45,229 nt of DNA from Candidatus Woesearchaeota archaeon (GTDB lineage: Archaea > Nanobdellota > Nanobdellia > Woesearchaeales > UBA10200), in assembly GCA_016180275.1 (NCBI GenBank), contig JACPBN010000006.1:1-45229 (forward strand). The letters are read 5' to 3'. The translations under genes and the position numbers were made by a program. A model generated the notes under the pieces. It was not told the DNA's origin and made no database searches. It saw only the letters and a list, made by a program, of their open reading frames with translations. Positions 13,518 through 37,202 of this stretch are shown here, in pieces. Each line of letters opens with the position of its first letter. The first letter of the stretch is position 1.

Positions 13518-14450
13518 ATGCCAACCGACAAACTAGCGCAGCACGAAGAATACTTAAGAAAGATGCACAAGAATAGGCTGGAATCCCTTAAAGACATCCA
13601 TCATGAAGACAGGTTTTTTGAGACAGGGCTTGGCAATAATCTGCTTGAATTAAAGAATGCGGTCCATGACCTTGCTGAGAAAGGAAAAAAGATTACTTCT
13701 AAAGAGATTAAAGCAGTAATTGGCAACCAAAATATAAAAACAGAGTTAAGAAAATTCATTTATGCCAGAGTTGGGCATTTAATTAAAGAAGCTGAGTACC
13801 TCAAGAATGTTGCCTGCGCAATTGAAAATGAAAAGCATGATTCAAAGCATCTGGAGCATTTTGTGGAGAATATTGAAAGCTATGCCGTACACCTGAAAAA
13901 AGAGAGGGAGAGGGAGGTTGAGCATCTATTGCATAATTTCAGGCATACATTTGCAAGCTTGCTGCATCCGATAACTGCACATGAGCATAAATTAGCTGGT
14001 TTGCTGGAAAAGAACGTGCATCTGCTGAGGACATTGCTGCATAAGGATGAGCTAAGGCATTTTGCAGAGAATCTTCACAATGATGATGTGATCAATAAGA
14101 TGAAAGAGAGATTTGGCGAGAATAAGACTGGCAAAGCACTGTATCATTTTATTGAGCAGCATACTAAACTAAAATCATTGCCCGAGAAATTGATTGAGCG
14201 CGGGAGAAAAGTTTTTTCACGCGAATTGACAAAACATGAAGTTTTATTTAAAATCGCAGACATGCTTAATGAGAGAGCTGAGATTCTTGAGGAAAAAGCA
14301 AACAAGAAGATAAGAAAGATTATTGGCAAACAGATAAAGGCAATTGAGTATAAATGGGAGCAGGCAAAGAAAAAAAGCAGCAAATTGCTTGATGAGGCAT
14401 TAGAGCACCATTCCAAGATGGAAAGGTTCTATAGGAAGATTGGGCTATAA
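13518..14450 (+). CDS. Histidine-rich helical/coiled-coil protein (310 aa), unknown family. Its 5' end is the repeated target sequence.
   Basis: Long ORF with many H residues in helical context (HLEHFVENIESYAVHLKK, HLLHNFRHTFASLLHPITAHEHKL). The intact N-terminus matches fragments A-C. Confidence 0.75.
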   Translation: MPTDKLAQHEEYLRKMHKNRLESLKDIHHEDRFFETGLGNNLLELKNAVHDLAEKGKKITSKEIKAVIGNQNIKTELRKFIYARVGHLIKEAEYLKNVACAIENEKHDSKHLEHFVENIESYAVHLKKEREREVEHLLHNFRHTFASLLHPITAHEHKLAGLLEKNVHLLRTLLHKDELRHFAENLHNDDVINKMKERFGENKTGKALYHFIEQHTKLKSLPEKLIERGRKVFSRELTKHEVLFKIADMLNERAEILEEKANKKIRKIIGKQIKAIEYKWEQAKKKSSKLLDEALEHHSKMERFYRKIGL

Positions 14451-15090: not shown

Positions 15091-15093
15091 TTT

Positions 15094-15109: not shown

Positions 15110-15122
15110 TTAAGTACTAAAA

Positions 15123-16048: not shown

Positions 16049-16065
16049 GCCTAAATAACTTTTCT

Positions 16066-16082
16066 CACAAAAGATTTATATA
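16066..16082 (+). promoter_or_regulatory. BRE/TATA box cacaaaagatttatata
   Basis: Consensus-like box upstream of operon 2. The palindrome tatacgtata (16097-16106) and the direct repeats atatacgt (16133-16140, 16144-16151) lie between it and the start. Confidence 0.45.
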
Positions 16083-16151
16083 GCCAAATCCTATTATACG
16101 TATAAAAACGTGGATATAAGTTATTAGAAGATTATATACGTGCATATACGT

Positions 16152-16337
16152 ATGACTAAAAAAAGCAGTAAAGAAAGCAATAAGGAGAAATTTACGCTAT
16201 ATCTGGACAAGACTCTTAGAGACAGCTATAAAGAATTCTGCCAATTAAGAGGCTATATTCCTTCCAGGATGATTGAGATTTTCATTGAGCAGGAACTGCA
16301 AAAAGCCAGAGAGGATGCTAAAAAGAGAGTAAAATGA
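16152..16337 (+). CDS. Small ribbon-helix-helix-like DNA-binding protein
   Basis: MTKKSSKESNKEKFTLYLDKTLRDSYKEFCQLRGYIPSRMIEIFIEQEL fits the RHH pattern. ATG 16152 is preferred over the track GTG 16140. The stop overlaps the next start (ATGA at 16334-16337). Confidence 0.5.
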   Translation: MTKKSSKESNKEKFTLYLDKTLRDSYKEFCQLRGYIPSRMIEIFIEQELQKAREDAKKRVK

Positions 16338-17407
16338 AAATGACTGCTAAAAAAAATAAAAACAATGCAAAGAAAAATAGCAAGAAGATTGCATTTTACG
16401 TATTTATTGCACTGATAATAGCAATTAATCTGTCAATTATTGCATATGCAGCATCTACTGACAGATTCTGGGATATTGTTGAAAAGATGTATGATTTTGA
16501 GTCAAGGTATGAGAAAAATCTGAAAATATGGGACTTTTTGCTGTTCTCAACAATATTTAACATAATTGCATGGATTGGATTAGTAAAAGCATTCCCGGAT
16601 AATAAAGCAGCAGCTTTCATATTAGCCTTAGTAATAGGCGTAGCGCTTGGTTTGGGAGCAGTGAAAGGAAACCTAACTGTCAAATTCTTTGTTCCATTTG
16701 TGAAGAATATATTGTTCTTTATAGTTATGGGCATAATATTTTTTGTGCTGATTAAGTTTGACATGAACAAATTCCTTGCGTTTATTTTAGCTTTGGTTAT
16801 TACTTTTGTTGCGTTCAATGTGCTTGGGCTGTTTGGCGCAGTTGATACAGGAGGATTGTTCGGAGGAAAGACAAGCTATGACACTTATGATCAGATAAAT
16901 GACCGATTAATTGCCCTGGGCAACAATTATCGTGTCACGTTTGATATTTCAGATGATATTGCTGCAAAGAGCAAGAAGCTCAGAGTGGCGATGCAGAGAG
17001 AGCAAGGAAAGCTGGAGGAAGAGCTCAAAAAGAACCCTAATGACAAGACTGCAAAATCCAAGCTTGATCAGGTCATTGCACACATAAATGAGCTGAATGA
17101 GCTTGAGAGAAAAGGTGCGCTGCTTGAGAAGGAAGAAGAGAAGAAAATCGCAGAGAGAGCTGCAATAGAGTATGATAAGTTCAGGGAGAATTTGACAGAA
17201 ATAAAGAAATTGAAAGGGGATACTCCCGAGCAAGTAAATGCAAAATTTGTTGACCTGAAAAAATTGAATGATGTGATTGAAGAGGAAGAAGGGAAAGTTA
17301 AAGGAACAACTATACCAACTCCAGCACCCACTGGTACTCCGACTCCACCTGCAGGTACAACACCAACAAGCGGAGCAGCTGCATCTGGACCAAATGCTGC
17401 TGATTAA
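16334..17407 (+). CDS. Membrane protein (signal anchor plus 4 TM), coiled coil and P/T-rich tail. Paralogue of 25299-27404.
   Basis: Conserved TM core AAAFILALVIGVALGLGAVKGNLTVKFFVPFVKNILFF...FLAFILALVITFVAFNV (nt ~16607-16831). Coiled coil KLEEELKK...LLEKEEEKKIAERA. Tail TPAPTGTPTPPAGTTPTSG. Confidence 0.8.
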   Translation: MKMTAKKNKNNAKKNSKKIAFYVFIALIIAINLSIIAYAASTDRFWDIVEKMYDFESRYEKNLKIWDFLLFSTIFNIIAWIGLVKAFPDNKAAAFILALVIGVALGLGAVKGNLTVKFFVPFVKNILFFIVMGIIFFVLIKFDMNKFLAFILALVITFVAFNVLGLFGAVDTGGLFGGKTSYDTYDQINDRLIALGNNYRVTFDISDDIAAKSKKLRVAMQREQGKLEEELKKNPNDKTAKSKLDQVIAHINELNELERKGALLEKEEEKKIAERAAIEYDKFRENLTEIKKLKGDTPEQVNAKFVDLKKLNDVIEEEEGKVKGTTIPTPAPTGTPTPPAGTTPTSGAAASGPNAAD

Positions 17408-17435
17408 ACTGCCAAAATCAATACTGCAAAGCAGA

Positions 17436-20318
17436 ATGAAGCATAATAAAATAACCGGAAAGAGAATCATTCTGAGTTTGATAGTTGCAATGCTATTGTC
17501 TTTAGTGATTGTATCTGCCTTAGATGAGAAAAAAATAAAATTGGATGAGCTAGAAAGCATAAAGAAATTAGTCTTGGCTGAGAGACTCAATTCATTCAAT
17601 ATAGTAAAAGCAAAGATTGAGAGATTGCTGAGCGATAAGACATCTGACGGAAAAGATAAGGATGCTGGGGCGATTAAAACTGATAATGATTTAGCGCAGA
17701 AGTTTATTGTTGCATTGACTGAATCTGCGTTTTTAACAGATGAGCAGAAAGGGACATTGACTAATTTACAGACAAGCCAAAGCGCTGCAGCAGCGATAGC
17801 TAAGGAGAAATCTGTTTTTAGCGGCTGGAGATTATGGGCAGCGATACCATTGGTACTTGCATTGATTTATATGTTATTATTGAGAAAGAATAGGTATAAG
17901 ACTGCTGGGAAAGGGATTGGATTTGGAGGAAAATGGCTCTGGCTAATGATAAGCGGGAAAAAAGGAAAGCTGGATGCGATTGAGAGATATAACAACCAGA
18001 TGCTGGAGTTAGAGAATAGGTCAAGGACAGAAATCAAATATATTGTTGATAAATTACTAAAGCAAAAAGAAGAGCTAATTGCCGCAAACGTAAAGAAAGC
18101 AAGCCAGCTTGTGTATTTAGGGCAGCTTGTTGTTAGGAGAATATTTGTTAAAGGCCATGCAAAAGAGCTGTTGGTAGATAAGAAACCTGTAAAAATAGAA
18201 GACGTTGGTGAAATAGAGCCTATCAGGATAGATGAGGTATTGGCTGAACTTGAGAAAATAAATAATAATCTCCCAGTAAAATTAAATGAGATAGTCGGCA
18301 ACCATATAACCATTGTGCAAAGGCATAAAAATCTTCTGGATGAGATTAAAGCGCTTCGCATCAAGACAAATGCTTCTGCACAAAGATTGGCTAATAATTC
18401 ACGAGTAAAAAATGTTTTGGGCAGCAAGATTGCGCAGATGGATTCTGCTGTTGCAAATATGCAGCAGATAATACAGGCACTAGATGACCTTGGTACAAGA
18501 TTAAACAGGAGTGTAGGAGTATTGGAGCAAGGATATGCCAGACAAAACGAATCAATAAAGCTTGAGAATGGCAACTTAAGCGAACTGATCCGTATCATAG
18601 ACAAAAAGTTCCAGGATTTTGCCAATGTTGCGCAGGATATATCTCATGAAGCAAACAAGATCGAACAGTCATTTGCCACCAGAGAAAAAAGAGTGTATAA
18701 CCTGATTGATGCAATCATCAAAAAGATTGAGCAAGAAAATGCAAAAATTCAGAACAGTGCAGGCAATGTAAATACTGGTGAGGCAGATAAATTGATTGAT
18801 GCTGCTACCAATATTGCCAGCATAGCAGAGCGATTAGCTTTGTTCAGGCAAAAAACTGATAAGATAACCACTGAACATCTTAAGTCATTCATTAAAGTAG
18901 TTAAACTGTTAAAGAATGATTTTCCAGAGGTAACGCTGGAAGAATTTAAAGAACAATTGGAAGGATTTGTTATTGTGCATAAGAATAAAGAGTTTAAGAT
19001 AGTTGAGGTTAGCGGAGATAATGTAAAATTGGAAGGAGTAAGCGATGCGATTTCGTTTGAACAGCTAAAGAATATAGATGATTTCTTGGCTAAGAGACAA
19101 TTAAGAAATTTATTGACCCATATTCTGACAAATGCAACTTACTTTGACAATAATGTTTTGAGAGATGTTGTTAATATATTTTTAGAGTTAAAAAATGCTG
19201 AGCCAAGTGCAAAGTTGGAGGAGTTCAAGAGTTTATTAATAGATAAGATAATTAGATACACTACAGAAACAAATGCCTTTATCGGATATAAGATTAAGAA
19301 TGTGATTGAAGATAAGCTTTTTGTTGTTAAAATAGATGAAAAAGATGCAGAAGATCGAACTATTTTAAAATTAGAGATTACACAAATAAAAAATCTATTG
19401 GAGAGAGCAACTGCACCTGCAGCAGCACCTAATCCTGCTCCTACACCAACACCACTTCCACCAAACGCAAGTGCTACATCCCAAGCAAAATACGCAATTA
19501 TTTCAGACATCCATAGCAACCTGCAGGCATTTCAAGCTGTGTTACAGGATATTGCAAAACAAGGAATCCCTGACTCAAATATCTATTGCTGCGGAGATAT
19601 TGTTGGCTATGGAGGAAATCCGAATCAGTGCGTGCAAATAATAAAAGATAGAGATATTAAATGGGTGTTGGGAAACCATGAGTTTGCTATACTTAATCCA
19701 GGCTATGCAGAAAAAGCCGGATTTAATGCATCAGCAACTGCTGCTGTTAACTGGCAGATAACAGAGCTAAATGAGAAATCAAAAGAATTCTTAAATGCAC
19801 AAAAACAAGAAAATTATATATTAGTGAGAGATGATTTTGTTATTGTGCATAGTGAATTAACTAAACCAAAAGAGTTTATGTATCTTTCTGAAGATTTGTA
19901 CAAAAAAACTGGCATAAACTTTGGTATTTTGCTGGGAGATAATTTCAATATATTATCAAAATATAATAAAAGAATTTGCTTTATTGGACATAGCCACATG
20001 CCTGAAATTTGGACAATTGATGCTAATAATAAAATGGAAAAGGGAGATATAAATATGCAGGATAAAAAAGGAATAGTTGATATTACAAATGCAAAAAACG
20101 TAATAGTCAATGTTGGAAGCGTAGGCCAGCCTAGAGATGGAGACACAAGAGCATGCTATGTGATTTATGACAAAGAAAATAGCAAAATTGCTATAAGGTA
20201 TGTAAGAGTAGGTTATAATGTTGCAGCTGCACAACAAGCTATTCTAAGTAGAATCCCTGATGGATATAATGAAGTTGCGGCAAATTATATGGCAGAAAGA
20301 CTAGCTAATGGCAGATAA
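17436..20318 (+). CDS. Membrane-anchored long coiled-coil protein with a C-terminal metallophosphoesterase (calcineurin-like) domain
   Basis: ATG 17436 gives MKHNKITGKRIILSLIVAMLLSLVIVSA (anchor); a second TM is WAAIPLVLALIYMLLL. About 600 aa of helical repeats follow, then the P/T/A linker APAAAPNPAPTPTPLPP. MPP motifs: AIISDIHSN, GDIVGYGG, GNHE, GHSH, GSVGQPRDGD (nt ~19484-20315). Confidence 0.85.
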   Translation: MKHNKITGKRIILSLIVAMLLSLVIVSALDEKKIKLDELESIKKLVLAERLNSFNIVKAKIERLLSDKTSDGKDKDAGAIKTDNDLAQKFIVALTESAFLTDEQKGTLTNLQTSQSAAAAIAKEKSVFSGWRLWAAIPLVLALIYMLLLRKNRYKTAGKGIGFGGKWLWLMISGKKGKLDAIERYNNQMLELENRSRTEIKYIVDKLLKQKEELIAANVKKASQLVYLGQLVVRRIFVKGHAKELLVDKKPVKIEDVGEIEPIRIDEVLAELEKINNNLPVKLNEIVGNHITIVQRHKNLLDEIKALRIKTNASAQRLANNSRVKNVLGSKIAQMDSAVANMQQIIQALDDLGTRLNRSVGVLEQGYARQNESIKLENGNLSELIRIIDKKFQDFANVAQDISHEANKIEQSFATREKRVYNLIDAIIKKIEQENAKIQNSAGNVNTGEADKLIDAATNIASIAERLALFRQKTDKITTEHLKSFIKVVKLLKNDFPEVTLEEFKEQLEGFVIVHKNKEFKIVEVSGDNVKLEGVSDAISFEQLKNIDDFLAKRQLRNLLTHILTNATYFDNNVLRDVVNIFLELKNAEPSAKLEEFKSLLIDKIIRYTTETNAFIGYKIKNVIEDKLFVVKIDEKDAEDRTILKLEITQIKNLLERATAPAAAPNPAPTPTPLPPNASATSQAKYAIISDIHSNLQAFQAVLQDIAKQGIPDSNIYCCGDIVGYGGNPNQCVQIIKDRDIKWVLGNHEFAILNPGYAEKAGFNASATAAVNWQITELNEKSKEFLNAQKQENYILVRDDFVIVHSELTKPKEFMYLSEDLYKKTGINFGILLGDNFNILSKYNKRICFIGHSHMPEIWTIDANNKMEKGDINMQDKKGIVDITNAKNVIVNVGSVGQPRDGDTRACYVIYDKENSKIAIRYVRVGYNVAAAQQAILSRIPDGYNEVAANYMAERLANGR

Positions 20319-20330
20319 AATTTTTTTGTA

Positions 20331-20391
20331 AGGATATTTTACCCCTGCTAAAATATTAGGTTATGTAATAATAGCAGGGTTGTTTATAAAT
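20331..20391. repeat. Direct repeat copy 1 (61 bp) with an internal GC hairpin and TATA-like end
   Basis: aggatattttacccctgctaaaatattaggttatgtaataatagcagggttgtttataaat. Stem ccctgct/agcaggg. About 53 of 61 nt are identical to 21959-22019. Confidence 0.8.
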
Positions 20392-20411
20392 GAGCTATGT
20401 TTCCAGCAAGA

Positions 20412-21662
20412 TTATTCTACTAAACTTGGCATCAATGCTGTTTTCCATGCAGGCACTAGCTTTATTAAATGATTTTTAGCTTTTATGCCCTGCTCAGTAT
20501 CCTTAGTTATCACAACAGCAGAAGTTTGCTTGAATTTTTCCATAAAATAATGTAAATTAGTGAGATCTTCATTTTTTATAGTTTCCTTATATTTTACTTC
20601 TATCGGCTTTTTATTTTTTATTATGTCAATTTCTTTCTCATGCTCTCGCCAATAGTATTTAGCATCAAATAGTGCAATAAATAGATTTTCAATAACTTTA
20701 CTTTCATCCAAATTTAAGCAAAAGCATGGATGATAAGGATAAACTTTTCTTAGTTTCCTAGATGAACTTAAAGCGCTACCCCTATAATTTTTGACTATCC
20801 GTATCAGCAGCCCTTGTGCTAAATAATTTATATGCTTGCCAAGAGTTTCTTTGCCTCTTTTAAGATCTTTTGCCAAGTTGTCTATGTTAAGTATTATGCC
20901 TCCTTCTTCAAAAAATATGTCTTTTAAAGTTTCTAATAGTTCAATGTCAACATCTTTAAATTCCTTTTTGATATCGTAAGAAAGGACTCTGCTAATTATG
21001 AATTCATGGATGTATTTTTTTGCTGAAAGCTCATCTCTTAAGATAGCAATTTCAGGAAAAGGAGTTTTTAGATACCATTTAAAATGATTCTTAAGCTCTG
21101 ATTCATGCAGAATAATCTTCTTCTCTTCTATTCTGATGCCATTTAATAACAGCCATTCATTAAAGCTTAACGGCTCTAATTTTAAAAAATTAATTCTTCC
21201 AGCTAAACTCTCAGCTATATTCTTTGTCAATGTTAGATATGAAGAGCCTGAGATGAAAAATTTTATATTAGGGTAGAGATCATAAAATATTTTTAATTTG
21301 TTCTGCCAGTCATCTAATTTCTGTATCTCATCAAAAAAAACAAAATATTTGCCATTTTCTAAATCTAAAGAATGCAGCTCTGTATATACTTTAAGTATTT
21401 CTTTAACTTCTGCAACTTTCTGGTCGAAAGAAAAGTAAAGGAGATGTTCTGGCTTAATACCTTTCTTTATTAAGTGTTCAATAGTTTGAAAAAACAATGT
21501 AGATTTACCAGTTCTTCTTAACCCAAATAATGCAATTATTTGTTTAGAGGATATGTAGTTGATTATCTTGCTCAATAATTCTCTCTCAAAATGTTTTGCT
21601 AAGTCTTCTTTAACTTTTCCGGTTTTCCACCAAGGATTGAATAAGAGCAGGATATCTTTCAT
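20412..21662 (-). CDS. AAA+ ATPase, AAA_14 plus DUF4143 type
   Basis: LFNPWWKTG start motif, Walker A GLRRTGKST, Walker B FVFFDEIQ. Overall layout matches 35649-36995. Confidence 0.85.
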   Translation of the reverse strand: MKDILLLFNPWWKTGKVKEDLAKHFERELLSKIINYISSKQIIALFGLRRTGKSTLFFQTIEHLIKKGIKPEHLLYFSFDQKVAEVKEILKVYTELHSLDLENGKYFVFFDEIQKLDDWQNKLKIFYDLYPNIKFFISGSSYLTLTKNIAESLAGRINFLKLEPLSFNEWLLLNGIRIEEKKIILHESELKNHFKWYLKTPFPEIAILRDELSAKKYIHEFIISRVLSYDIKKEFKDVDIELLETLKDIFFEEGGIILNIDNLAKDLKRGKETLGKHINYLAQGLLIRIVKNYRGSALSSSRKLRKVYPYHPCFCLNLDESKVIENLFIALFDAKYYWREHEKEIDIIKNKKPIEVKYKETIKNEDLTNLHYFMEKFKQTSAVVITKDTEQGIKAKNHLIKLVPAWKTALMPSLVE

Positions 21663-21686
21663 TTTACAGCATTAAAGTATGAAAAG

Positions 21687-21699
21687 TATATAAATTTTT
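21687..21699 (-). promoter_or_regulatory. BRE/TATA box (minus strand aaaaatttatata) of the ATPase gene
   Basis: Ends 25 nt upstream of the minus-strand ATG at 21662 (leaderless spacing). Confidence 0.5.
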
Positions 21700-21752
21700 C
21701 GTTCTGAAACTAGAACGAATGTTTATATTATTCGTTCTGAAACTAGAACGAA
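21698..21752. promoter_or_regulatory. Two identical 22-bp palindromes ttcgttct-gaaact-agaacgaa, 33 bp apart, flanking a second TATA-like box
   Basis: 21698-21719 and 21731-21752 are identical. The first abuts or overlaps the minus-strand BRE; gtttatatta lies between them. Confidence 0.6.
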
Positions 21753-21958
21753 TAAAAGGAAGGATAATAGAGAAAGCCATTGAGATGTTTTCAAAAGCTA
21801 GTATTGATCTACTAGGTTTTGTATGCCTTTAGAAATATTTGGAACTAAGGCATCTAAGAAAGCTTCATTTGAGATAATTCCTGTATCTCTTAAATATAAT
21901 AATGCCTGTGTTAATGCCTGCAAGAATGTTTTGATCTAGAGATGGATATTATAGATTG

Positions 21959-22019
21959 AGAATATTCCACCCCTGCTGAAATATCAGTTTTTGTCATAAT
22001 AGCAGGGTTGTTTATAAAT
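21959..22019. repeat. Direct repeat copy 2 (61 bp)
   Basis: agaatattccacccctgctgaaatatcagtttttgtcataatagcagggttgtttataaat. Same hairpin arms and the same 3' gggttgtttataaat as copy 1. Confidence 0.8.
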
Positions 22020-22076
22020 AACCAAAAAAAGCAAAGATATATACCTAATAGGTATTATACCTGATAAGTATATAAA

Positions 22077-22493
22077 ATGAAATTTTACAACCGCGAAGAG
22101 GAATTTGAAACATTAGACAAGCTTTGAAAAGAGCATCTATGAATTATTGGCTTCAAAGAAGATTGAACTGCCCTTTAAATATACTATGCTTGGCACACAA
22201 TGGGGAAGATTTAAAGGAGAAAAAGGAAAAAATACTTATGAGATTGATTTAATGGCCGTAAATGAGCAGAAAAAACAAATTTTGTTTGCTGAGTGCAAAT
22301 GGCAAGGGAAGATTAATGCTTCAGAGATAACTAATGAGCTATCAACTAAAGCACATATGTAGATTGGAATAAAGATGGAAGAGAGGAATACTACCTTATA
22401 TTTGCAAAAAGCTTTTCAAAGAAGATCAAGGAATGGCAAGGAAAAGAAGTAATATGCTATGATCTAGATGATGTTAAGAGAATGCTGAAATAA
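22077..22493 (+). pseudogene. Degraded DUF234-type ATPase gene (N-terminal 16 codons, large internal deletion, frameshift)
   Basis: MKFYNREEEFETLDKL* matches the start of 9473. Then ...IELPFKYTMLGTQWGRF...EIDLMAVNEQKKQILFAECKWQ matches its C-terminal domain. After the stop at 22360 a +1 shift continues DWNKDGREEYYLIFAKSFSKK...DDVKRMLK*. Confidence 0.8.
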
Positions 22494-23106
22494 GGTAGGC
22501 TATTAGAGTCAAATTTTCCGGAGCTTTATAGCATAGTTGATAAGTACTTTCCAATTTATAGGGCTATTCAGTGCCTTTGCTATATTATTTATATAACTTT
22601 AATTTTTTATTAGATTATTCAGTTAATAAATTGAATTGATGAATAATAGAGACAGGTTTTTGTAATTATTGAGCAGGTAGAGTGATTATATTGTGAAAAT
22701 GTAGCCAGATTAATCAATTATTATAGAGAATATTTTAGTAAGTAGAAATATAAAATATTTCAGAGTAATTAGATTGTTGATGTTATGAATTGTTGTATTC
22801 GATAGGAAGGACATATATTCTGTATTGAAGACAGGCATAAAAGCCAATGAGATGGTTAAGAGATTAAGGCAGCACTAACACATAATGGATTTGTAAATAA
22901 AGAAGCAGCTGCAAGAAACTTAGAAATGTTCAAGAAATTGTATAATGCTTAAATTAATAACAGATTATTCTATTACTCAGTTATGTATTTTAGTAATTAA
23001 GTTATTTTATTATTATGTTTAATATTATGGTAATTTGAATATACATGGTTAGATAGTTGAATTATAGCTATTTCTAGTAATTATTCAATCAAATAATTGA
23101 AAAACG

Positions 23107-23119
23107 AAAGATTTATATA
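23107..23119 (+). promoter_or_regulatory. Orphan consensus BRE/TATA box (aaagatttatata)
   Basis: Good match to the local promoter consensus, but no ORF starts within ~200 nt. It lies in an ORF-free decayed zone. Confidence 0.3.
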
Positions 23120-23320
23120 CTAAATTTAATATTTTAGTAATTTGAATATTGATTTGTATTTTTTATTTAGTTTAATTTTTAATAGTGATCTGCACTAGCC
23201 AAGGGAAAAGAGGAAAAAAAGAAAGCTATTATTGAGGGAAAGAATCCTGAAAGAAGAAGTGAGAATAATATGACATAAAGTTTTTAAAGATGAATAACTT
23301 GATAATAGCCGTGATGCAAA

Positions 23321-23539
23321 ATGAAAATAGAAGAATTAAAAAAACAATATAAGGATGAATGGGTGCTGGTAGAAATCATTGAAGAGGATAAATTAAATAG
23401 GCCACAAGAAGTTAAATTGATTGCGCATAGCAAAAATAGAGATGATACATATGATGCTATGGTAAAAAATAAAAAAAAATACACCTACCATTTTTATACA
23501 GGAGAAATCCCTGAAAAAGGTTATGCGGTGGCATTTTAA
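23321..23539 (+). CDS. Small DUF5678-like protein
   Basis: 72 aa: LKKQYKDEWVLVEII...VKLIAHSKNRDDTYDAMVK. Its stop overlaps the next start (TAATG). Assignment is from memory of the family pattern and is tentative. Confidence 0.45.
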   Translation: MKIEELKKQYKDEWVLVEIIEEDKLNRPQEVKLIAHSKNRDDTYDAMVKNKKKYTYHFYTGEIPEKGYAVAF

Positions 23540-23925
23540 TGGGAAATCATAATTTGGATAAGAACGCTTCAGTAATTGTTATTGAAGTATTGATAGAAAA
23601 TAAAGGCATTAAGAAAAAATTAAAGATGGTCCTTGATACAGGCGCCACATATACCTTAATCCCATGGCAGGTTGCAGAAGCGCTGAATATGGAGCCTGCC
23701 TTAAGTAAAACAAGGGCAGATATTATAACGGCATCTGGAGTAGAAAAAGTTCCATTGATGTTTGTTGAATCTGTTGCTGCATTTGATAAAAAAGCAGAGA
23801 ACGTCAAAATAATTGTCCATGACCTGCCAGCAAAAAGCTATGTAGATGGATTATTGGGATTAAGCTTTTTGAGAAATTTTAATCTTCATATTAATTTTAA
23901 GGAAGGATACTTAGAGTTAACATAA
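23539..23925 (+). CDS. Retropepsin-like (clan AA) aspartic protease
   Basis: Catalytic [11 protein letters not shown] motif. The 128-aa size and the C-terminal [11 protein letters not shown] pattern are typical of single-domain retropepsin-like proteases. Confidence 0.75.
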
Positions 23926-23939
23926 AAAGAGGAACTACT

Positions 23940-24284
23940 TTGTCCAACAACATCGCAAAAATACTCGGCAAAGATACTGTATGGCTTATTCTGGAAGAGT
24001 TAGCTAGAGGCAATAAAACACCCACTGAATTGGCTGAGAAATTCCAGATGTCAGTAGCTAATGTAGATAATTTTCTTGCAAGATTAGAGGATAAGCAGAT
24101 AGTAAAAAGAACTAAGAAAATCAAGAAAGGCCGCGGAAGACCATTTACTGAATATGCACTAGACAGATGCCCAATTATTGTAATGATACCCAGCCAAGGC
24201 AAGAAAGTCCTGCTTGAGCTGAATGATAATGATCTCAATGAGTTAAATGAATTTATCAGGAAGAATAATGGTGAGCAGGTCTGA
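23940..24284 (+). CDS. Winged-helix (ArsR-like) transcriptional regulator
   Basis: [47 protein letters not shown] start with SD aagagg 7 nt upstream. The last 24 nt are duplicated at 25273-25296. Confidence 0.6.
24261..24284. repeat. Direct repeat copy 1 (24 bp), the 3' end of the regulator gene
   Basis: aagaataatggtgagcaggtctga, identical at 23 of 24 nt to 25273-25296. Confidence 0.85.
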
Positions 24285-24335
24285 GAAATAAAAAAGAATA
24301 CAATAACTTAAGGTCACAATTTGTTACCATAAAAA

Positions 24336-24360
24336 AAGGTATCGCAAAATGCGATACCTT
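24336..24360. other. Strong hairpin aaggtatcgc-aaaat-gcgatacctt
   Basis: 10-11 bp perfect stem between the regulator gene and the ORF6N gene, inside the inserted segment. Could be a terminator, an operator or a recombination site. Confidence 0.5.
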
Positions 24361-24388
24361 AAATGTTTGGAGAAGAGGTAAGAAAAAT

Positions 24389-25267
24389 ATGCCCAGAGAA
24401 TTAGCTGTTTTTAATCAAGAAGAGGTTAAAAGCAAGATTTACACTATTCGCGGATTACAAGTAATGCTAGATAGGGATTTAGCTGAACTTTACGAAGTTA
24501 CAACATTTAATCTTAATAAGGCGGTTAAAAGGAATAGTAAGAGATTTCCATTAGATTTTATGTTTCAATTAACAGAAGAAGAATACAGTAACTTGAAATT
24601 CCATTTTGGAATATCAAGTTGGGGCGGTCGAAGAACCTTACCTTATGCTTTCACTGAACAAGGCGTAGCAACGCTTTCAGGTGTATTAAAAAGTACTAAA
24701 GCTATTGAGGTTAATATTCAGATAGTTAGAGCATTTGTCGCTATGAGAAAGTTTATTTCCGCAAATGCTCATATCTTTCAGAGATTAGATACTGCTGAAA
24801 CTAAACTGATTGATCATGATAAGAGATTTGAGCAAGTGTTCAAAGCAATTGAAAGCAAAAGCATCAAGCCTGAGAAAGGCATATTTTTTGACGGGCAGAT
24901 ATTTGACTCATATAAATTCGTTTCAGATATCATCAGAACAGCTAAAAAATCGATTGTTTTGATCGACAATTACATAGATGATTCTGTTTTGACGCTATTC
25001 AGCAAGAGAAATAATAATGTGCAAGCCATCATATTTACTAAAGAGATCTCTAAGCAATTATCCCTTGACTTAGCCAAATATAATTCACAATATCCTTCAA
25101 TTGAACTGAAAGAGTTTAAGCAGTCGCATGACAGGTTTATCATAATTGACAATAAGGAAGTCTACCATTTTGGAGCATCATTGAAAGACTTGGGAAAGAA
25201 ATGGTTTGCTTTCTCAAAATTTGATAAAGATGCATTTAAGCTTTTAGATAAGCTATGGTTAAAATGA
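24389..25267 (+). CDS. ORF6N-domain (KilA-N-related) DNA-binding protein with a C-terminal degenerate PLD-like region
   Basis: N-terminal IYTIRGLQVMLDRDLAELYEVTTFNLNKAVKRNSKRFPLDFMFQLT...LPYAFTEQGVATLSGVL. C-terminal SIVLIDNYIDD...HDRFIIIDNKEVYHFGASLKDLGKK. Confidence 0.8.
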   Translation: MPRELAVFNQEEVKSKIYTIRGLQVMLDRDLAELYEVTTFNLNKAVKRNSKRFPLDFMFQLTEEEYSNLKFHFGISSWGGRRTLPYAFTEQGVATLSGVLKSTKAIEVNIQIVRAFVAMRKFISANAHIFQRLDTAETKLIDHDKRFEQVFKAIESKSIKPEKGIFFDGQIFDSYKFVSDIIRTAKKSIVLIDNYIDDSVLTLFSKRNNNVQAIIFTKEISKQLSLDLAKYNSQYPSIELKEFKQSHDRFIIIDNKEVYHFGASLKDLGKKWFAFSKFDKDAFKLLDKLWLK

Positions 25268-25272
25268 CAATA

Positions 25273-25296
25273 AAGAATAACGGTGAGCAGGTCTGA
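25273..25296. repeat. Direct repeat copy 2 (24 bp), ending 2 nt before ATG 25299
   Basis: aagaataacggtgagcaggtctga. Confidence 0.85.
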
Positions 25297-25298
25297 AT

Positions 25299-27404
25299 AT
25301 GAGAAGCAATAATTTTAACAATAAATTTATGAGAAAGTTGATTGTGAATATTTCATATATAATAATAGCTCTGATGCTTAGCATTGTCGTAATAAATATC
25401 GCAAGCGCAGAAACAACACTTGAGCAGGATGTTGCAAGTTTTGGGAGGTCAGCATTAGGAAAACTAAGCGGGCAAAGCAACACGAAAGGAGTTGGCAATG
25501 ACCCCATACAAGGCACAGGCAAGCTGGTTGATTTTTATAACAGGAACCAGAGCCTGATAGATTTCTTTATCATGTTTGCACTGTTCTGCAGCATTGCATT
25601 AATTGGATTAAAGAAGACAGGATTTGGGGAGTCAGGAGGAAATGCCATGAAGGGATTAGCGATTGCAGTTGGAGCAGCATTGGCAATTGCTGCATTAAAA
25701 GCCGGATATTCCCCTAGCTTTTTTGTGCCATTTGTAAAGAATTTCCTGTTCCTGATAATATTCTTTGTAATATTTATGGTAATAAAAGCCACAATGAGTC
25801 AAAATGTTCTCCTTGCATTTATTTTGGCTTTAGTAATAACATGGGTTGCATTTAATGTAGCTAATTTGGTGTTAGAAGGCAAGGAGAATAAGTTTGACAT
25901 GGCGAATGTGTTCAAATTGATGGCAGGCTCTCCGACTGATACAGACGAACAGAGAAGGCTGAGCAATATTGAGGTAAGGCAGACACAAGATGAGCTGGAC
26001 GCGCTTTACGAAGAGAAAGGGCGTCTTGAAGAATTGATTGGAAATGGAGAGTATAAATCAAAGTTTTTAGTGGAGCAAGCACGTGAGAGTGAAAAAGATG
26101 AGAAGAAAAAAGCAAACTTAATGAGATTATTTGATGTGATGGGAAAAATAGAAGAGCTTGAGGCAAAGATGCAGAAAGAGATGGGCAAGAGATTTGATTA
26201 TGACAAACAAAATCCTACAACGCCTAAACTAAATTTAAGAATAAGTGATGATAAAACTAAATTAATTTGCACAATTGACCCTACAACAGGAAAGATGTCT
26301 GGCGCTCCTGAAAATGTGAATAAAGACATAAAATACAGATTTGAGTTTTCTGTTGACGGTAATGTTAAGAAATATTATGATATTGATTATAAGGACAGGG
26401 CAACTGAACAGACGTATTCATTAGAAAAAGAAGGAGTTTGGAAATGCAAAGTTTATGCTTATATAGAAACATACGGCAAGACACCAGACCAAGTTACGCC
26501 GGGAGAGGCAATGCTGGATTATTTAGGCGCAGAACATGAAGCAGATAAAACTGCATTTGAGACTAATAAAGCAATAATAGAAAGCGAGAGAGAAGCTACT
26601 GATAAAATTAATGGTGCAGTTGCTGCATTGAAAGGATTAAAAGGAAGGACATACTATAATAGGAATAAAAACGAAATAGATAAGTTTATAAATGCTGGAG
26701 AAATAAAGGTTAAAGCAATAAATGTTTACAAAGAAGTTACAACTGAGCAGGCAACTATTGCTAGCATAACAGGTACTACAGCAACAGAGATAGCAAGTAA
26801 GAAAAAAGCTAAAATTGATCCTTTGATTAGTAAAATACAAGAGGTGTTGAATATCTGGAAACCTTATAGAGGCATTGATACTGCATTTGATGCACTTCTT
26901 GATAATAAGTTAGCTGAGTTAAAAGGTTCTTCTCCTGATACAACTATCCCTAATTTTGCTGGAAAAAGAAATGTAGATAGTTCATCTGGACAAAAATACA
27001 CTTTAACAGATGATGACGAATTTATAAATGGCCAGCCGAAAGGTGAGTACGGAGTAAAAATTAATTTTGGGCCAAAAGAGATAATGGTTGCACAAAAACA
27101 AACTATCAGGCTTTCTATATCCTTGGATAGCGAGATACCTAATAAGTTTAGAATAATTTTCGGCCATGCCGTGAATCAGGTTTTAGCTAGCCAGACAATT
27201 GATGAGACAATAGATAATTCTGCTAAGACAATCAACTTTGAGATTCCTGTTACTAGTTATGATGCACGTAATTCGCAGAAAGAGATAATTGTAGAAGTAT
27301 ATGATATGGATGGAAATACAGCGAGTACAAATATTGTTAGATTTGAATATAATGTAAATGTACAGCCTGCAGGACCAATACAATATGGCTCTGGAAAATT
27401 ATAG
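25299..27404 (+). CDS. Membrane protein (signal anchor plus 4 TM), coiled coil and a ~420-aa beta-rich C-terminal region. Paralogue of 16334-17407.
   Basis: Core AMKGLAIAVGAALAIAALKAGYSPSFFVPFVKNFLFL...LLAFILALVITWVAFNV (nt ~25647-25868) aligns with the operon-2 protein. Coiled coil DELDALYEEKGRLEELI...IEELEAKMQKE. Confidence 0.8.
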   Translation: MRSNNFNNKFMRKLIVNISYIIIALMLSIVVINIASAETTLEQDVASFGRSALGKLSGQSNTKGVGNDPIQGTGKLVDFYNRNQSLIDFFIMFALFCSIALIGLKKTGFGESGGNAMKGLAIAVGAALAIAALKAGYSPSFFVPFVKNFLFLIIFFVIFMVIKATMSQNVLLAFILALVITWVAFNVANLVLEGKENKFDMANVFKLMAGSPTDTDEQRRLSNIEVRQTQDELDALYEEKGRLEELIGNGEYKSKFLVEQARESEKDEKKKANLMRLFDVMGKIEELEAKMQKEMGKRFDYDKQNPTTPKLNLRISDDKTKLICTIDPTTGKMSGAPENVNKDIKYRFEFSVDGNVKKYYDIDYKDRATEQTYSLEKEGVWKCKVYAYIETYGKTPDQVTPGEAMLDYLGAEHEADKTAFETNKAIIESEREATDKINGAVAALKGLKGRTYYNRNKNEIDKFINAGEIKVKAINVYKEVTTEQATIASITGTTATEIASKKKAKIDPLISKIQEVLNIWKPYRGIDTAFDALLDNKLAELKGSSPDTTIPNFAGKRNVDSSSGQKYTLTDDDEFINGQPKGEYGVKINFGPKEIMVAQKQTIRLSISLDSEIPNKFRIIFGHAVNQVLASQTIDETIDNSAKTINFEIPVTSYDARNSQKEIIVEVYDMDGNTASTNIVRFEYNVNVQPAGPIQYGSGKL

Positions 27405-27424: not shown

Positions 27425-30400
27425 ATGAGAGAATTTAATACAATTAAAAAAACAGGTGTAATATTTCTGTTAGCTGTGGCTTTATTCTTGTTATTATCTG
27501 CTTTAGGCTATTCAACCCCTGATGATTGCCTATCAAACCAAGATTCAAGGATAGAAGCTTCATGGAGGTTATTCCATAAAAATTCTCAAGGCAAATACAC
27601 TACTAAAAATGAAGTCAAGGACGGATATAATTTCTTAAAGGCTGCCGGTGTTGTAAAGCAACGTTTGACAGAATGCGGCGGACGTGATTACTATAAGAAA
27701 ACTGTTTCTGTATCTGTAGGAGGAAGCACAACCCCAATTTATATTGATGACATATATGACTTAATGAAAACAAGAGCAGAAGCCTTAGGAGTATTAACAG
27801 AATATTATCTTTTATTTCCTGATATCTATAGAGGGATATCAACAGACAAGGTAACTTTTGAGCTTCATGTTAAGATTCCAGATGCATTGAATACATACTT
27901 TGAATCTGTTAGCGGATACCCTGTAATTTATGCTGAAGCTGAGAATAATAGGTTAAACCCTCCGGCAATATCATTTGTTGAGAAAAGGCCTGGCTCACCT
28001 GATTCAGTATATGTATATAGAGGAGAAGTAAGTCTGTTTAGAGATACCGAGAATGTAATTTTTAGATCGCAAATATATAATGGTTTTGGATTAAAGGATT
28101 TCAGCGCAAGCTATACTAAAGGAAGCTCGCAGAGTATTAATTTAATCTTTGAGAAATTAGGCGTTACTACACATAAGCTTGTTATTAATACTTATGCAGA
28201 GGCAGATTTAGGGGCCGGTGGAGTAGAAAAAAGAGTAATAGATGGTGTTGTAACAGACCCTAATAGCTTACCAAATGATTTGGTAAGTGTATATAGATTA
28301 GACGGCTCAACCAGAACAAAGATTATAGACAACAAAAGGGCAACATTTACTGTTGATGTAGCTATTGGGAGTAATTATGAAATAGAATGGAAAGATCTCT
28401 TAAGCACACAGTCATTGCAGAGAGAAATGGAAAGATATACCATCTCGTTAGCTAATGTTAGCACAACAGAAAGCAGGTTTGAAAATGTGTATAAATTGCA
28501 AAAAGTGACTAAGCCTATTACAGTCAGTAGAAGATCAAGTAACTCTATCGAGATTATAATGCCAATAGAGTTTCAAAGCCAAGTTAATTTTAATTCAAAG
28601 AGCAATTATTTAATTCATCAAGTAGGTAACGATGCAAATAGCCTAACAATCCAGGATGTTGAGCCAGTCACTAAAACAAGCGATAGCAGGGTTATTGTAT
28701 TAAATGTTGGAAATCAACAAAAAGGAGTGCAGTATGATGTCTGGCTAATTACAGGAGCAGGCAATAAGTTTTTAGGAAGATTTGTAGGAGATGCGCAAGA
28801 GACATTACAGTTTACTGCAGGAAGTGTGACATTTGACCCATCTGTCGGGAATATTGGGCAGCTAACGCCTGGGCAGAGCAAGGAATTTGTTGCTACCTTG
28901 GATAGTAGTTTTCCTTCAACAGGATTAACATGGGAATGGCAAGTATTGCAAGGAAGTAAAGATATAACAGATACAGCACAGAAAAATGCAGTCAGAAGAT
29001 ATTTATTTACTGCACCAAATATTGCAGGGGAATATATTGTTAAATTAATTTTAACGCAAACATCCCAAGCAACAAAAAAAACCGGATTTTGGATATTCTC
29101 ATCAACTGAAACTGTAACCAAATCGAATCCTATTAATCCAACTGCAATTAATAAAAGAGCAGAATGGAGATTAACAATTAATGACAAAGCAACTGTGCAA
29201 GACAGATTAACACAGATAGAATCAAAAATTGGACAAGCTAATGCAGAAAAGCAGAAACATGACGAGTTAATCAATACTATTTATAACAAACTACGAGCAG
29301 AGAGAGATGGTGTTAAAACAAATGCACTCATAAATATCAATGGTGCTCTAAAAAAATTAGATGAAGCACTGAAGAATAATTTTAAAGATATTAACTTAGA
29401 TGATCCAGCCAATGCATATCTTGTAAATAAAAAGGCTGAAGTAGAGCAATTAAAGATTTCATTTACTGCTATAAAGACAAAGACAGAAAATATAAATCTT
29501 GATGGGCCGCAGTTTAAGTACGATAAAGCTTTCTTTGACACAAATCTTAAGTTTAATCAACAGCCAGTTAGTGGTCAGACATTTAGAGTAGATAGGATTT
29601 CTATAACTGATGTAACTGGTCTTCAGACTGGTGTAACAAAAGATGCCGTGTTTAATTATGTTAAGAAGACATGGGGACAAAAAACTATAAGCGGTAAACC
29701 TATAGATCCACAAACAGGAGATGATGATACTGCCATATTTACAGTTAAAAAGCCAACTGTTAGAGAAGGCTCAATAGTAACTTTAGAATTATTTGCAAAA
29801 GAGGGAGAAATGCAAGGCAAAAAGATTACTGAATTTACTTGGACAATAGATACTCCATTAGACGTTGGCTTGAATGTTGTTAAGGAAAGAACAGATGATG
29901 TAGTTAGGCCAGGAGATGTTTTAACATTTAATATTGTGCCAAAGCAACAGGGTGTTGATTTTGAGGAATATAAGAAAAGAATTAAATCAACTGCATGGGC
30001 AGTAAATCCTGCTACCGGAGCAACTAAAACAGAAGAAGCAATAGATCACTCAAAAGTTAAGTTTGATGATGCCGGAACATATACTATTACTGCTACTTTT
30101 GATTCTGAGTATGCAGATGTAGCTGGAGTAAAAGCTGAAACACAAATAACTGTTGAATTGCCTGATGATGAACCAAAGATTATGCTGATAAGTGCACAAG
30201 CAGAGAAGTTATACAATGAAGGCAAGACTGAATTATCAGCTGCAAATGCTGAAAAGCCACAAAACCAACAGAAAAGGGATGCTGCAAAGAAAAAATTAGA
30301 AGATGCTAAAAGATTATATGATCAATTAGATAAAAAATTTGAGGCAGCAAAAGCTGCTAATAAGCAATTTGCAGGATTGACAATTACACAGCCACAGATT

Positions 30401-31881: not shown

Positions 31882-32517
31882 ATGAAATCAAAAACTAGAT
31901 TAATAACAATAAGCGTAATGATTTTAGTAATTCTCTCTATTTTAAGCATCTTTGTTTCTGCTGATGTAAAGTTTGGAGTAGAGGAGACAAGTGACTTGAT
32001 AACTGCAATTAAAGAGGAAAGCGATTATAATAATTTATTGGCAATGTTTGATGCTGGATTGATGGAAGATGCAGTTAAGGCTGATGCCAAGATAAAAGAA
32101 AGATTATCTTCTTTGGTTGCAAGAAACGGATGGAAAAAGCCTGATTTTTTAACTGATGAGGATGTAAGTAAAAAGAAAGCTGAATTAGATAAACTACAAA
32201 AAGATTTAGAAAAATCAGAAAAAGAAGCAACCAAAGCTGAATCAACAGCAAGCGCAGTAAAGTATGGCGGCATAGGTGGCATTGTTTTGGTTATTGTAAT
32301 AATTATATTTGTAGGGATCAGAAAATACGGCAGTGCTAAGACAATGCTAACACCAGGAGGCACTGCACTAGGCGCGCAGGCAGCAGCAGAAGTGACTGCA
32401 AACCAGGAAGCTTTAGATGCATTGTTCAGGAGAAAGCAGGAGATATTGAGACAGTACCAAGCTGCAGTAAATACAGGCAACATACCTGAAGCAAGGAGGC
32501 TTTATGGCAGCAGATAG
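31882..32517 (+). CDS. Single-pass membrane protein with signal peptide
   Basis: Signal LITISVMILVILSILSIFVSA. TM GGIGGIVLVIVIIIFVGI. Helical regions on both sides. Overlaps the next gene by 14 nt. Confidence 0.7.
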   Translation: MKSKTRLITISVMILVILSILSIFVSADVKFGVEETSDLITAIKEESDYNNLLAMFDAGLMEDAVKADAKIKERLSSLVARNGWKKPDFLTDEDVSKKKAELDKLQKDLEKSEKEATKAESTASAVKYGGIGGIVLVIVIIIFVGIRKYGSAKTMLTPGGTALGAQAAAEVTANQEALDALFRRKQEILRQYQAAVNTGNIPEARRLYGSR

Positions 32518-37093: not shown

Positions 37094-37202
37094 CAATCGC
37101 TGATTATAATTATTAAAAAAGAGGAAAGCAAATAAAACATGAAAAGAGGCAGATGAAGTTCTGCTTTTAATAAGAGCTAATAAAAAGTTATAAGAGGTGT
37201 TG

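Follow-up and report, generated by a model that had tools for sequence, protein, structure and literature searches.

What is the function of two related membrane proteins in a woesearchaeal genome, each encoded between a small DNA-binding gene and a very large gene? Both are found in a stretch of 45,229 nucleotides from Candidatus Woesearchaeota archaeon (assembly GCA_016180275.1, contig JACPBN010000006.1, positions 1 to 45,229 of the forward strand), which is here called the window. The Woesearchaeota and related lineages are ultra-small archaea that are abundant, have not been cultivated and are believed to live attached to other cells. In an original prediction made from the bare sequence, protein A (357 aa, 16334-17407) and protein B (701 aa, 25299-27404) were taken as the heads of two paralogous operons that share a membrane platform for docking different large effector or surface modules. 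We found that A and B belong to a family defined by a core of four transmembrane (TM) helices and that genes of this family recur within a conserved multi-gene locus. The explanation towards which we lean, with restrained confidence, is that the core is a conserved membrane anchor or socket for fast-evolving surface modules in an envelope-spanning complex encoded by the locus, and that this complex probably serves contact between cells. The two proteins and their cores are as follows.

16334..17407, + strand: protein A, 357 aa; signal peptide or anchor, four-helix core, ~155-aa charged and probably helical ectodomain, Pro/Thr-rich tail.
16466..16849, + strand: four-helix core of A, residues 45-172; match to the family HMM with E=1e-40; the invariant Asp, Phe and Pro are present.
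25299..27404, + strand: protein B, 701 aa; signal peptide, ~45-aa N-terminal outer segment, core, charged helical segment, beta-sandwich, helical bundle, linker, second beta-sandwich.
25494..25892, + strand: four-helix core of B, residues 66-198; match to the family HMM with E=4e-44; D, F and P at the invariant positions.

The open reading frames of A and B were confirmed at the positions originally given. By BLASTP the two proteins are 32% identical across 289 aa (E=1e-15), and their cores are 45% identical. The pairwise alignment showed the shared strings to be exact, namely FFVPFVKN (A118/B141), LAFILALVIT (A148/B172) and VAFNV (A159/B183). A Smith-Waterman comparison of the two cores scored 213, compared to 40.7 ± 7.5 for 2000 composition-preserving shuffles (best 83, z=23), and the other multi-TM proteins of the window scored at most 56 against either core. 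A bias in the composition of TM helices is thereby ruled out as the source of the likeness. In a six-frame translation of the window, A and B were the sole matches to a two-sequence profile of the core. We regard A and B as true paralogues, their likeness being one of homology and not of hydrophobic composition.

The signal anchor and the four TM helices claimed for both proteins were borne out by hydropathy and by an AlphaFold model of the core, which was built on an alignment of 44 sequences and consists of two short helices followed by four long ones (pLDDT 90.4). Both N-termini combine positively charged residues with a hydrophobic segment and an AxA-like site (AYA/AS in A and ASA/E in B). 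A coiled coil had also been claimed for both proteins and was not substantiated. In a heptad test, which was crude and applied to soluble segments only, 44 of 300 shuffles reached the observed score for residues 176-330 of A and 140 of 300 did so for residues 199-310 of B, neither result being significant. The two segments are probably helical, since they are about 40% charged and poor in Pro and Gly.

The family was revealed by an exhaustive HMMER search with the two-sequence core profile against 1.84 billion cluster representatives. At E≤1e-3 this search returned 136 clusters at the 50% identity level, 62 of them with E≤1e-10. Word-indexed protein searches uncovered little, probably because hydrophobic words swamped the index; the two-sequence profile gave two fragments only and a 44-sequence profile three matches, and an 874-aa protein of the same locus (see below) gave one. 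The core is placed near the N-terminus throughout the family (~residues 30-190), whereas total protein length ranges from 85 to 1318 aa. All named members are hypothetical proteins of Candidatus Woesearchaeota or Nanoarchaeota, and no relatives of the core were found in a viral contig collection. Neither A nor B had a match in Pfam, NCBIfam, PADLOC or PHROGs. When 44 diverse cores were compared to Pfam at E≤1, scattered sub-threshold noise was obtained, with DUF2070 in 9 of the 44 (best E=0.012) and Yip1 in 6. Foldseek searches with the core model gave nothing significant (best E=0.63 with a TM-score of ~0.3 in the PDB and best E=0.52 in BFVD). The core was thus found neither to match a known membrane family nor, at z=23, to owe its likeness to composition, which were the two points on which the original prediction had considered itself open to refutation. 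The family is rare, previously undescribed as far as the tools and libraries used can tell, and restricted to the Woesearchaeota/Nanoarchaeota (DPANN).

Conservation and loop charges were determined from an alignment of 126 sequences, which also served for the family HMM. Near-invariant positions of the core are Asp28 (98%), Phe36 (96%), Phe29 (93%) and Pro82 (93%). The motifs that hold the invariant residues are Y..(I/V)DF at TM1, GL.K after TM1 and PF.KN at TM3. The mean number of Lys plus Arg residues is 2.6 in the TM1-TM2 loop and 2.5 in the TM3-TM4 loop, compared to 1.0 in the TM2-TM3 loop. By the positive-inside rule these charges point both termini of the core outward, and we strongly infer that the N- and C-termini of the core lie outside the cell and that the region after the core is displayed on the surface.

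The domains that follow the core were scanned in 86 full-length members (individual members are given P numbers). An OmpA-family domain directly follows the core in five of them, with P0037, P0048, P0076 and P0064 above the Pfam gathering cutoff, and an SLT domain was found in two (73 bits at ~residues 198-350 in P0061). Further modules after the core were PAN, SdrD_B/SpaA, CarboxypepD_reg, DPY/DUF7107 and bMG3, and Ig-like or Cys-rich modules follow it in other members. All of these are extracellular-type modules, which would lend independent support to an outward C-terminus. An AlphaFold model of residues 299-701 of B, made with three sequences, contains a beta-sandwich (pLDDT ~85-90), a helical bundle (85-95), a disordered linker and a second beta-sandwich (55-60). 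Foldseek matched this model to generic Ig-like folds (arrestin, MSP/PapD-like, complement macroglobulin) that cover one domain each. The predicted folds fit a surface protein but are not diagnostic of one. Taken together, loop charges and domain types would place the ectodomains of A and B outside the cell; a phosphoesterase encoded downstream of A would be inside it (see below). The proposal of a shared platform stands in so far as one core carries very different modules, and a catalogue of what follows the HMM-defined core likewise gave a family with diverse C-terminal modules. It is less well borne out for separate docked partners, the variable modules being mostly fused to the C-terminal side of the core in the same protein.

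For comparison of the genomic context, loci were retrieved for diverse core-family members (L001, L003, L004, L005, L007, L008, L010, L011 and L013-L017; the window's own locus is called W) and their neighbouring genes were clustered. L001 and L003 come from one metagenome-assembled genome. Relative to L003, amino-acid identity in the window falls from 95% for the small winged-helix protein encoded upstream of B to 71% for the core of B and 29% for its ectodomain, and the large secreted protein encoded downstream is essentially unalignable. Relative to L001, identity is 81% for the small ribbon-helix-helix protein upstream of A, 83% for the core of A and 36% for its ectodomain. At the DNA level the conserved parts are 76-84% identical between the window and the related loci. 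This value speaks against recent cassette swapping as the source of near-identical heads, and together with the steep gradient of conservation it points to purifying selection on the core and fast divergence elsewhere. The notion of a discrete conserved membrane module, accompanied by quickly diverging soluble parts and partners, therefore holds. A separate observation concerns the A-type orthologue of L001 (9426-10553), where an in-frame tandem duplication of 14-15 aa was found inside TM4 (NKFLALILALVITFV NKFLAFILALVITFV); this is either a real variant or an assembly artefact.

A very large gene had been claimed to follow each of the two core genes, and this was found to be the case. The products encoded downstream of A and B are the following.

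17436..20318, + strand: single-pass partner of A, 960 aa from ATG 17436; signal peptide, ~97-aa ectodomain, TM helix at residues 130-151, predicted long cytoplasmic helical region, predicted C-terminal PPP/ApaH-like metallophosphoesterase.
27425..31849, + strand: 1474-aa secreted protein with signal peptide, beta-rich.
31882..32517, + strand: 211-aa single-pass protein; signal peptide, ~88-aa ectodomain, one TM helix, ~58-aa cytoplasmic tail; the L003 equivalent has 315 aa.
32504..33988, + strand: 494-aa cytoplasmic protein; its start overlaps the end of the 211-aa gene and the family is kept in L003.

The partner of A had been listed as a 1013-aa reading frame from TTG 17277, which overlaps A. 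The starts of the orthologues in L001 and L004 match ATG 17436 (MKHNK...), and the protein probably starts there with 960 aa. Its C-terminus is predicted to be a Calcineurin-like, PPP-type metallophosphoesterase. Metallophos_2 matched with 52.4 bits (cutoff 27, E=7.6e-14), PDB entry 3rqz with E=1.7e-24 and the PHROG of NinI-like Ser/Thr phosphatases with E=4e-10, and the D-x-H, GD and GNHE signatures are all present (SDIHSN, GDIVGYG and GNHE). The TM helix is followed by RKNRYK..GKK, and because of this positive flank the long helical region and the phosphoesterase are placed in the cytoplasm. The 1474-aa protein has no TM helix besides its signal peptide by hydropathy, and its positional equivalent in L003, of 1122 aa, is almost unalignable. 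The label of an Ig-like fibre given to it was not confirmed, as I-set and PKD matches were sub-threshold only. In the ectodomain of the 211-aa protein, a significant heptad segment was found (2 of 300 shuffles).

In the clade of the window, the core gene is followed by a separate single-pass gene, the product of which combines a signal peptide and a short ectodomain with one TM helix and a cytoplasmic region. Such partners were found at 17436-20318 and 31882-32517 of the window and in L005 (523 aa), L008 (574 aa), L003 (315 aa) and L016 (444 aa). A C-terminal region of 100 aa or more follows the core in 111 family members; an additional TM helix was found in 47 of these, and in 43 of the 47 there is exactly one. 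Members with a further TM helix have a median ectodomain of 108 aa and a median tail of 317 aa after the helix, and in P0037 and P0127 an OmpA-like domain lies between the core and the further helix. The simplest reading is that proteins of the type core-ectodomain-TM-tail in distant lineages correspond to two gene products in the clade of the window. This pattern of fusion and fission predicts contact between two ectodomains and a link from the surface to cytoplasmic proteins. Docking of a separate partner would follow from gene order and from the same pattern, the latter applying to the single-pass partner only. As a single case, L013 encodes a 1621-aa FHA-domain protein (1-4866) directly upstream of its core gene; an FHA protein and a PPP-like phosphatase hint at phospho-threonine signalling.

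Upstream of each core gene, the window contains a small DNA-binding gene, in the case of B with an insertion.

16140..16337, + strand: 65-aa ribbon-helix-helix (RHH; CopG/RepB-regulator-like) protein; Pfam RepB-RCR_reg 22.1 bits (cutoff 21).
23940..24284, + strand: 114-aa winged-helix (wHTH; ArsR/MarR-type) protein; HTH_5 28.9 bits (cutoff 22), MarR 28.2 bits (cutoff 24.6).
24261..25296, + strand: insertion of 1012 bp with an ORF6N gene (24389-25267); not part of the system.

The stop codon of the RHH gene and the start codon of A overlap as ATGA, as claimed. The RHH orthologue in L005 matches RepB-RCR_reg with 27.6 bits and that in L001 is 81% identical. The wHTH gene is the ancestral immediate upstream neighbour of B. 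Its last 24 nt, the 3' end of the gene, recur as direct repeats at 24261-24284 and 25273-25296 (23 of 24 identical) that bound the ORF6N insertion, and the ATG of B begins 2 nt after the second copy. In L003, the wHTH gene (95% identical) directly abuts the B-type gene without an insertion. The distance of 2 nt originally proposed for the wHTH gene and B, once the ORF6N insert is discounted, is hence correct. The insertion looks like a small site-specific mobile unit. RHH and wHTH genes are the best-conserved genes of their operons, and conserved non-coding leaders precede both (16061-16139 relative to L001 and 22964-23228 relative to L003). A small DNA-binding gene before each membrane protein was observed in the window, for the A-type genes of L001 and L005 (RHH) and for the B-type gene of L003 (wHTH), but it is absent from the more distant loci L008, L010, L011, L013, L014 and L015, so that this claim applies to close relatives only. 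In L007 the gene upstream of the core gene encodes an HTH-nucleotidyltransferase of the mobile type. RHH and wHTH are best seen as putative clade-specific local transcription regulators that would be translationally coupled to A and B. Between the leader and the wHTH gene, the window has a 72-aa reading frame and a gene for a 128-aa retropepsin-like aspartyl protease (PF13975, E=3e-15) at 23229-23924. Both are absent at the equivalent position of L003, where the conserved leader runs straight into the wHTH gene.

Clustering of the neighbouring genes revealed a conserved locus, the recurring families of which were named F2, F3, F5, F6, F7 and F9. Its remaining members in the window are listed here.

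470..1642, + strand: F3, leading P-loop ATPase, weakly ATPase_2/AAA_16-like; orthologues head the locus in L010, L014, L015, L016 and L017.
1639..4755, + strand: F2, polytopic membrane protein, 1038 aa, with a cytoplasmic C-terminal domain of ~500 aa; no Pfam, NCBIfam or PDB match.
4757..6619, + strand: F6, cytoplasmic protein of 620 aa; conserved-locus family.
6632..9256, + strand: F2-paralogous cytoplasmic protein, 874 aa; C-terminal domain paralogous to that of the 1038-aa protein; no PDB or Pfam match.
13518..14450, + strand: F7, 310-aa protein; directly before the RHH gene in L001 and L005.
37197..38207, + strand: F9, 336-aa protein; recurs downstream of core genes.
38301..38693, + strand: F5, four-TM protein of 130 aa; 52-65% identity across loci; always adjoins F9.

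The recurring order starts with F3 and F2. Next come a cytoplasmic protein (F6 or a different one), a soluble paralogue of F2 and, in some loci, F7, and then the core gene. Downstream of the core gene there is a partner that is either single-pass or cytoplasmic, in many cases with a Metallophos protein and in many cases with a second core gene, and F9, F5 and PAC2 follow. In the window this order is represented by 470-1642, 1639-4755, 4757-6619, 6632-9256, 13518-14450, A, its partner, B, 37197-38207, 38301-38693 and 39935-40645. The F3-F2 pair was found upstream of the core gene in all loci with enough upstream sequence, i.e., W, L010, L014, L015, L016 and L017, and the order is partly present in L001, L005, L007 and L011. 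A and B thus show both diagnostic features of the family, the signal peptide with the four-helix motif pattern and the locus position after F3-F2. Two core genes per locus were found in W, L010, L014 and L015 and in the genome of L001 and L003, and in L014 a 1535-aa Metallophos protein lies between the two core genes as in the window. In a neighbour-joining tree of ~130 core residues, the upstream copy of W groups with the upstream copy of L015, and the downstream copies form a second group. There is a weak indication that the duplication of the core is old. Housekeeping genes, rpL35Ae among them, adjoin the locus in L011, L014 and L015, and the locus is chromosomal and vertically inherited.

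Several features of the individual families deserve mention. F2 proteins range from 470 to 1250 aa across the loci. The C-terminal domain shared by the 1038-aa and 874-aa proteins (3814-4752 and 7622-9253 of the window) was detected with iterated HMMER at ~1e-25, and the pairing recurs in L005, L007 and L010. Sequence and profile comparisons of both proteins and of the shared domain to the PDB gave noise only, and the domain has no Pfam match. F5 is far better conserved than the large proteins of the locus. PAC2 follows F9/F5 in W, L007, L010 and L015 and is either a part of the system or a mere syntenic neighbour. L015 also contains, inside the cluster, a Peptidase_M23+SLT cell-wall hydrolase gene (14777-15955), a possible link to attack on peptidoglycan.

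These comparisons do not bear out two autonomous operon heads; A and B are fixed parts of one conserved multi-gene locus. The window resembles separate operons mainly because mobile genes were inserted between the conserved ones. The interrupting genes encode ATPase_2+DUF234, Schlafen/AlbA_2, HTH-nucleotidyltransferases with small partners, AAA_14/DUF4143 ATPases, the retropepsin-like protease and ORF6N, and they are considered insertions because they are absent at the matching positions of close relatives. Compared to L001 and L005, the locus is broken at 9473-13515 and 14451-16060 by blocks of ATPase genes and small paired genes. Encoded in these blocks are HTH-nucleotidyltransferases that have a small partner downstream, ATPase_2+DUF234, a Schlafen AlbA_2/HATPase_c_4 protein and a possible RHH/toxin pair. 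The intergenic junctions of the locus seem to collect mobile or defence cargo. An identical 22-nt palindromic unit, TTCGTTCTGAAACTAGAACGAA, occurs at 21698-21719 and 21732-21753, 34 nt from start to start, just upstream of an AAA_14/DUF4143 ATPase gene on the minus strand (20412-21662); the pair looks like an operator. Further downstream, 41260-42141 encodes a XerC/D-type tyrosine recombinase (Phage_integrase, E=8e-42) with a low-complexity insert rich in Asp and Asn (NTNNDDDNDDNNKHNN). Scans of the whole window for tRNAs and Rfam RNAs detected nothing. Nearly all genes of the window (1-45229) are on the plus strand, and the GC skew is positive in every 2-kb segment, with a steadily rising cumulative skew. 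Given this one-sided skew and strand bias, the window probably lies on one replichore or leading strand.

How could the parts work together? With the core as anchor, A would display a charged helical stalk and a Pro/Thr-rich tail on the surface, and B a stalk, two beta-sandwiches and a helical bundle. The ectodomain of the core protein would pair with the short ectodomain of the downstream single-pass protein, whose cytoplasmic part would carry the phosphoesterase in operon A or lead to a separate cytoplasmic protein in operon B. Core protein and single-pass partner would in this way form a link across the membrane, both halves of which may be one polypeptide in 47 of the 111 distant members. 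The 1474-aa secreted protein needs a receptor to stay on the cell because it has no TM helix, and B is the obvious candidate; it would probably be held at the surface by B, a proposal based on gene adjacency. The assembly would most likely mediate contact with other cells, its outward parts diversifying rapidly, and in some lineages the displayed module may bind or cut the bacterial cell wall (peptidoglycan).

Several points weigh against this explanation. The topology is predicted from the positive-inside rule and domain types, and the pairing of A and B with the downstream proteins from fusions and the order of genes. A and B themselves have no module recognisable as binding or enzymatic, and their coiled coil is not supported by the crude heptad test. 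The Asp (98%) and Pro (93%) residues at the outer ends of TM1 and TM3 suggest that the core does more than anchor passively. The synteny from rpL35Ae to PAC2 would fit a housekeeping envelope structure as well as a device for host contact.

A further-reaching proposal, possible but doubtful, is that the locus of about ten genes encodes a new envelope-spanning machine for attaching to, and in some lineages breaching, other cells including bacteria. The machine would comprise F3 (the P-loop ATPase), F2 with the soluble F2 paralogue, F6, F7, F9 and F5 (the 130-aa four-TM protein), together with one or two core proteins and with single-pass partners that bear the PPP-like phosphatase. In it, the four-helix core would act as a conserved socket in the membrane, and the fast-evolving ectodomains would set the specificity for the partner.

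The syntenic context raises the alternative of a housekeeping envelope system of the S-layer type, in which B would be a membrane-anchored stalk and the 1474-aa protein the outer canopy, with the rest of the locus assembling or anchoring the envelope. In the window as in L003, a stalk-like anchored protein does lie directly before a secreted protein that is very large and has no TM helix, the B ectodomain contains beta-sandwich domains, and the synteny with rpL35Ae and PAC2 is found in several genomes. However, no large secreted gene follows the core gene in L005, L007, L010, L014, L015, L016 or L017, and between genomes with wHTH proteins that are 95% identical the secreted protein can hardly be aligned, which would be extreme for the structural protein of a lattice. 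SLT and OmpA-like modules moreover target peptidoglycan, which archaea lack, and no S-layer structure was among the top 50 Foldseek matches of the B ectodomain. We consider this alternative unlikely. We consider it quite unlikely that the literal model of two autonomous regulator-headed operons, with a shared platform docking different separate effectors, is correct. The coupling of RHH to A and of wHTH to B, kept in L001, L005 and L003, the conserved non-coding leaders before both regulators and the large gene after each core gene all agree with it. Yet the regulators are missing in more distant loci, both core genes sit in a single conserved locus, most variable modules form one polypeptide with the core, and the phosphoesterase is predicted to be cytoplasmic and tethered by its own TM helix, which would make docking unnecessary.

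The strict conservation of Asp28 (98%) and Pro82 (93%), far beyond what anchoring needs, could also mean that the core itself is active. It would then use the invariant Asp to couple ion flow or lipid binding to the ectodomain, for instance as a channel, a transporter, an ion conductor or a unit of the stator kind, in loose analogy to MotB or ExbD and their OmpA-like or periplasmic domains. Several members consist of the core and an OmpA-like domain and recall MotB in their arrangement. In the predicted topology, however, the Asp is at the outer end of TM1, whereas that of MotB is near the cytoplasmic end. The locus has no MotA-, ExbB- or TolQ-like partner and no Pfam match to such families, Foldseek gave no channel or stator match (best E=0.6), the loops have 4-6 residues, and there is no second conserved charged residue inside the membrane. 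An active core is in our opinion very unlikely. Finally, the ATPase_2+DUF234, AAA_14/DUF4143, Schlafen/AlbA_2, HTH-nucleotidyltransferase, ORF6N and tyrosine recombinase genes in the window, as well as an RHH regulator of a kind common on plasmids, might indicate an integrated virus or plasmid or an anti-phage defence island with A and B as membrane components. This is highly improbable and largely refuted, as the mobile-type genes are insertions absent from syntenic loci and, in L011, L014 and L015, the locus is surrounded by housekeeping genes that include ribosomal-protein genes. The conserved genes have no PHROG or PADLOC match except the phosphatase domain and noise; for PADLOC, weak noise consisted of mad8 (E=7e-5) on the ATPase and PDC-S66 (E=0.002) on the charged region of A. 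A prophage or plasmid gene set was also searched for, and neither a viral hallmark, a PHROG set nor relatives among viral contigs were found.

With these results, a pair of hypothetical proteins becomes a defined family with diagnostic motifs, an HMM, a predicted topology and a conserved context. Since the family is tied to modules that bind or cut peptidoglycan, its members are candidates for a cell-contact apparatus and a marker for lineages that target bacteria, and the type of ectodomain could be scored across genomes to ask which lineages these are. About six further conserved families of the locus are without annotation; should they together make up a single machine, that machine would be new. 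The core family, its motifs, the predicted topology and the locus are undescribed as far as the tools and libraries show, and nothing specific turned up when the literature was searched for earlier descriptions of a surface locus in Woesearchaeota. The general idea of a conserved anchor that bears modular surface proteins is itself well known, and several established systems can be compared.

The two-component S-layer of Sulfolobales consists of SlaB, which is anchored by a single C-terminal TM helix, and SlaA, which is very large and secreted. The window resembles it in that a membrane-anchored beta-sandwich stalk is encoded beside a very large, TM-less, beta-rich secreted protein. It differs in gene order and in the orientation of the parts, no sequence or fold match was seen, and the large secreted partner is missing in most loci. 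B does not have the make-up of a SlaB-type stalk: a signal and beta-sandwiches are present, but the anchor is an N-terminal four-helix core and a coiled coil is not supported. An anchor followed by an outward OmpA or SLT domain, as in P0037, P0048, P0064, P0076 and P0061, is also found in MotB/Pal-type OmpA-like anchors, membrane-bound lytic transglycosylases and the cell-wall hydrolases of conjugation (VirB1, PrgK). Their anchors are single TM helices or lipoproteins, whereas here a four-helix bundle is found in an organism without peptidoglycan; A and B have no OmpA or SLT domain, and MotA, VirB4 or another hallmark partner is lacking. A and B do not fit a stator of the MotB/ExbD/TolR type, as the core has four helices with an outer Asp, the locus contains no partner by Pfam match, and A and B have no OmpA-like domain.

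Polymorphic surface and toxin proteins resemble the family in that a conserved N-terminal module is joined to highly variable C-terminal modules, conservation falls steeply along the gene, and paralogues occur in the same genome. In contrast to these, no toxin or immunity modules were detected, and the core genes are chromosomal and syntenic, with one or two copies per genome and no expanding cassette array. Eukaryotic four-helix membrane scaffolds such as tetraspanins provide a functional analogy only, being small four-helix bundles of a kind that could organise membrane partners. There is no homology; in the present family the large ectodomain comes after TM4, not between TM3 and TM4, and the conserved Cys pattern is lacking.

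A further likeness, in lineage and proposed role, is to extracellular SLT proteins of Woesearchaeota and Pacearchaeota, which were proposed to attach to bacterial cell walls (Castelle et al., 2021; PMC8204110). In the passages of that paper that were searched, these proteins are up to 3000 aa long and defined by SLT, and not by a four-helix N-terminal core or by the present locus; A and B for their part have no SLT domain. Common to the two are the lineages, surface modules directed against the bacterial wall, and families that mostly lack annotation and are specific to a lineage. In the family described here, P0061 has an SLT domain directly after the core, and the M23+SLT gene of L015 lies inside the locus. 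The reading of the core as an anchor for surface display agrees with the SLT proposal (Castelle et al., 2021; PMC8204110), and the two were made independently.

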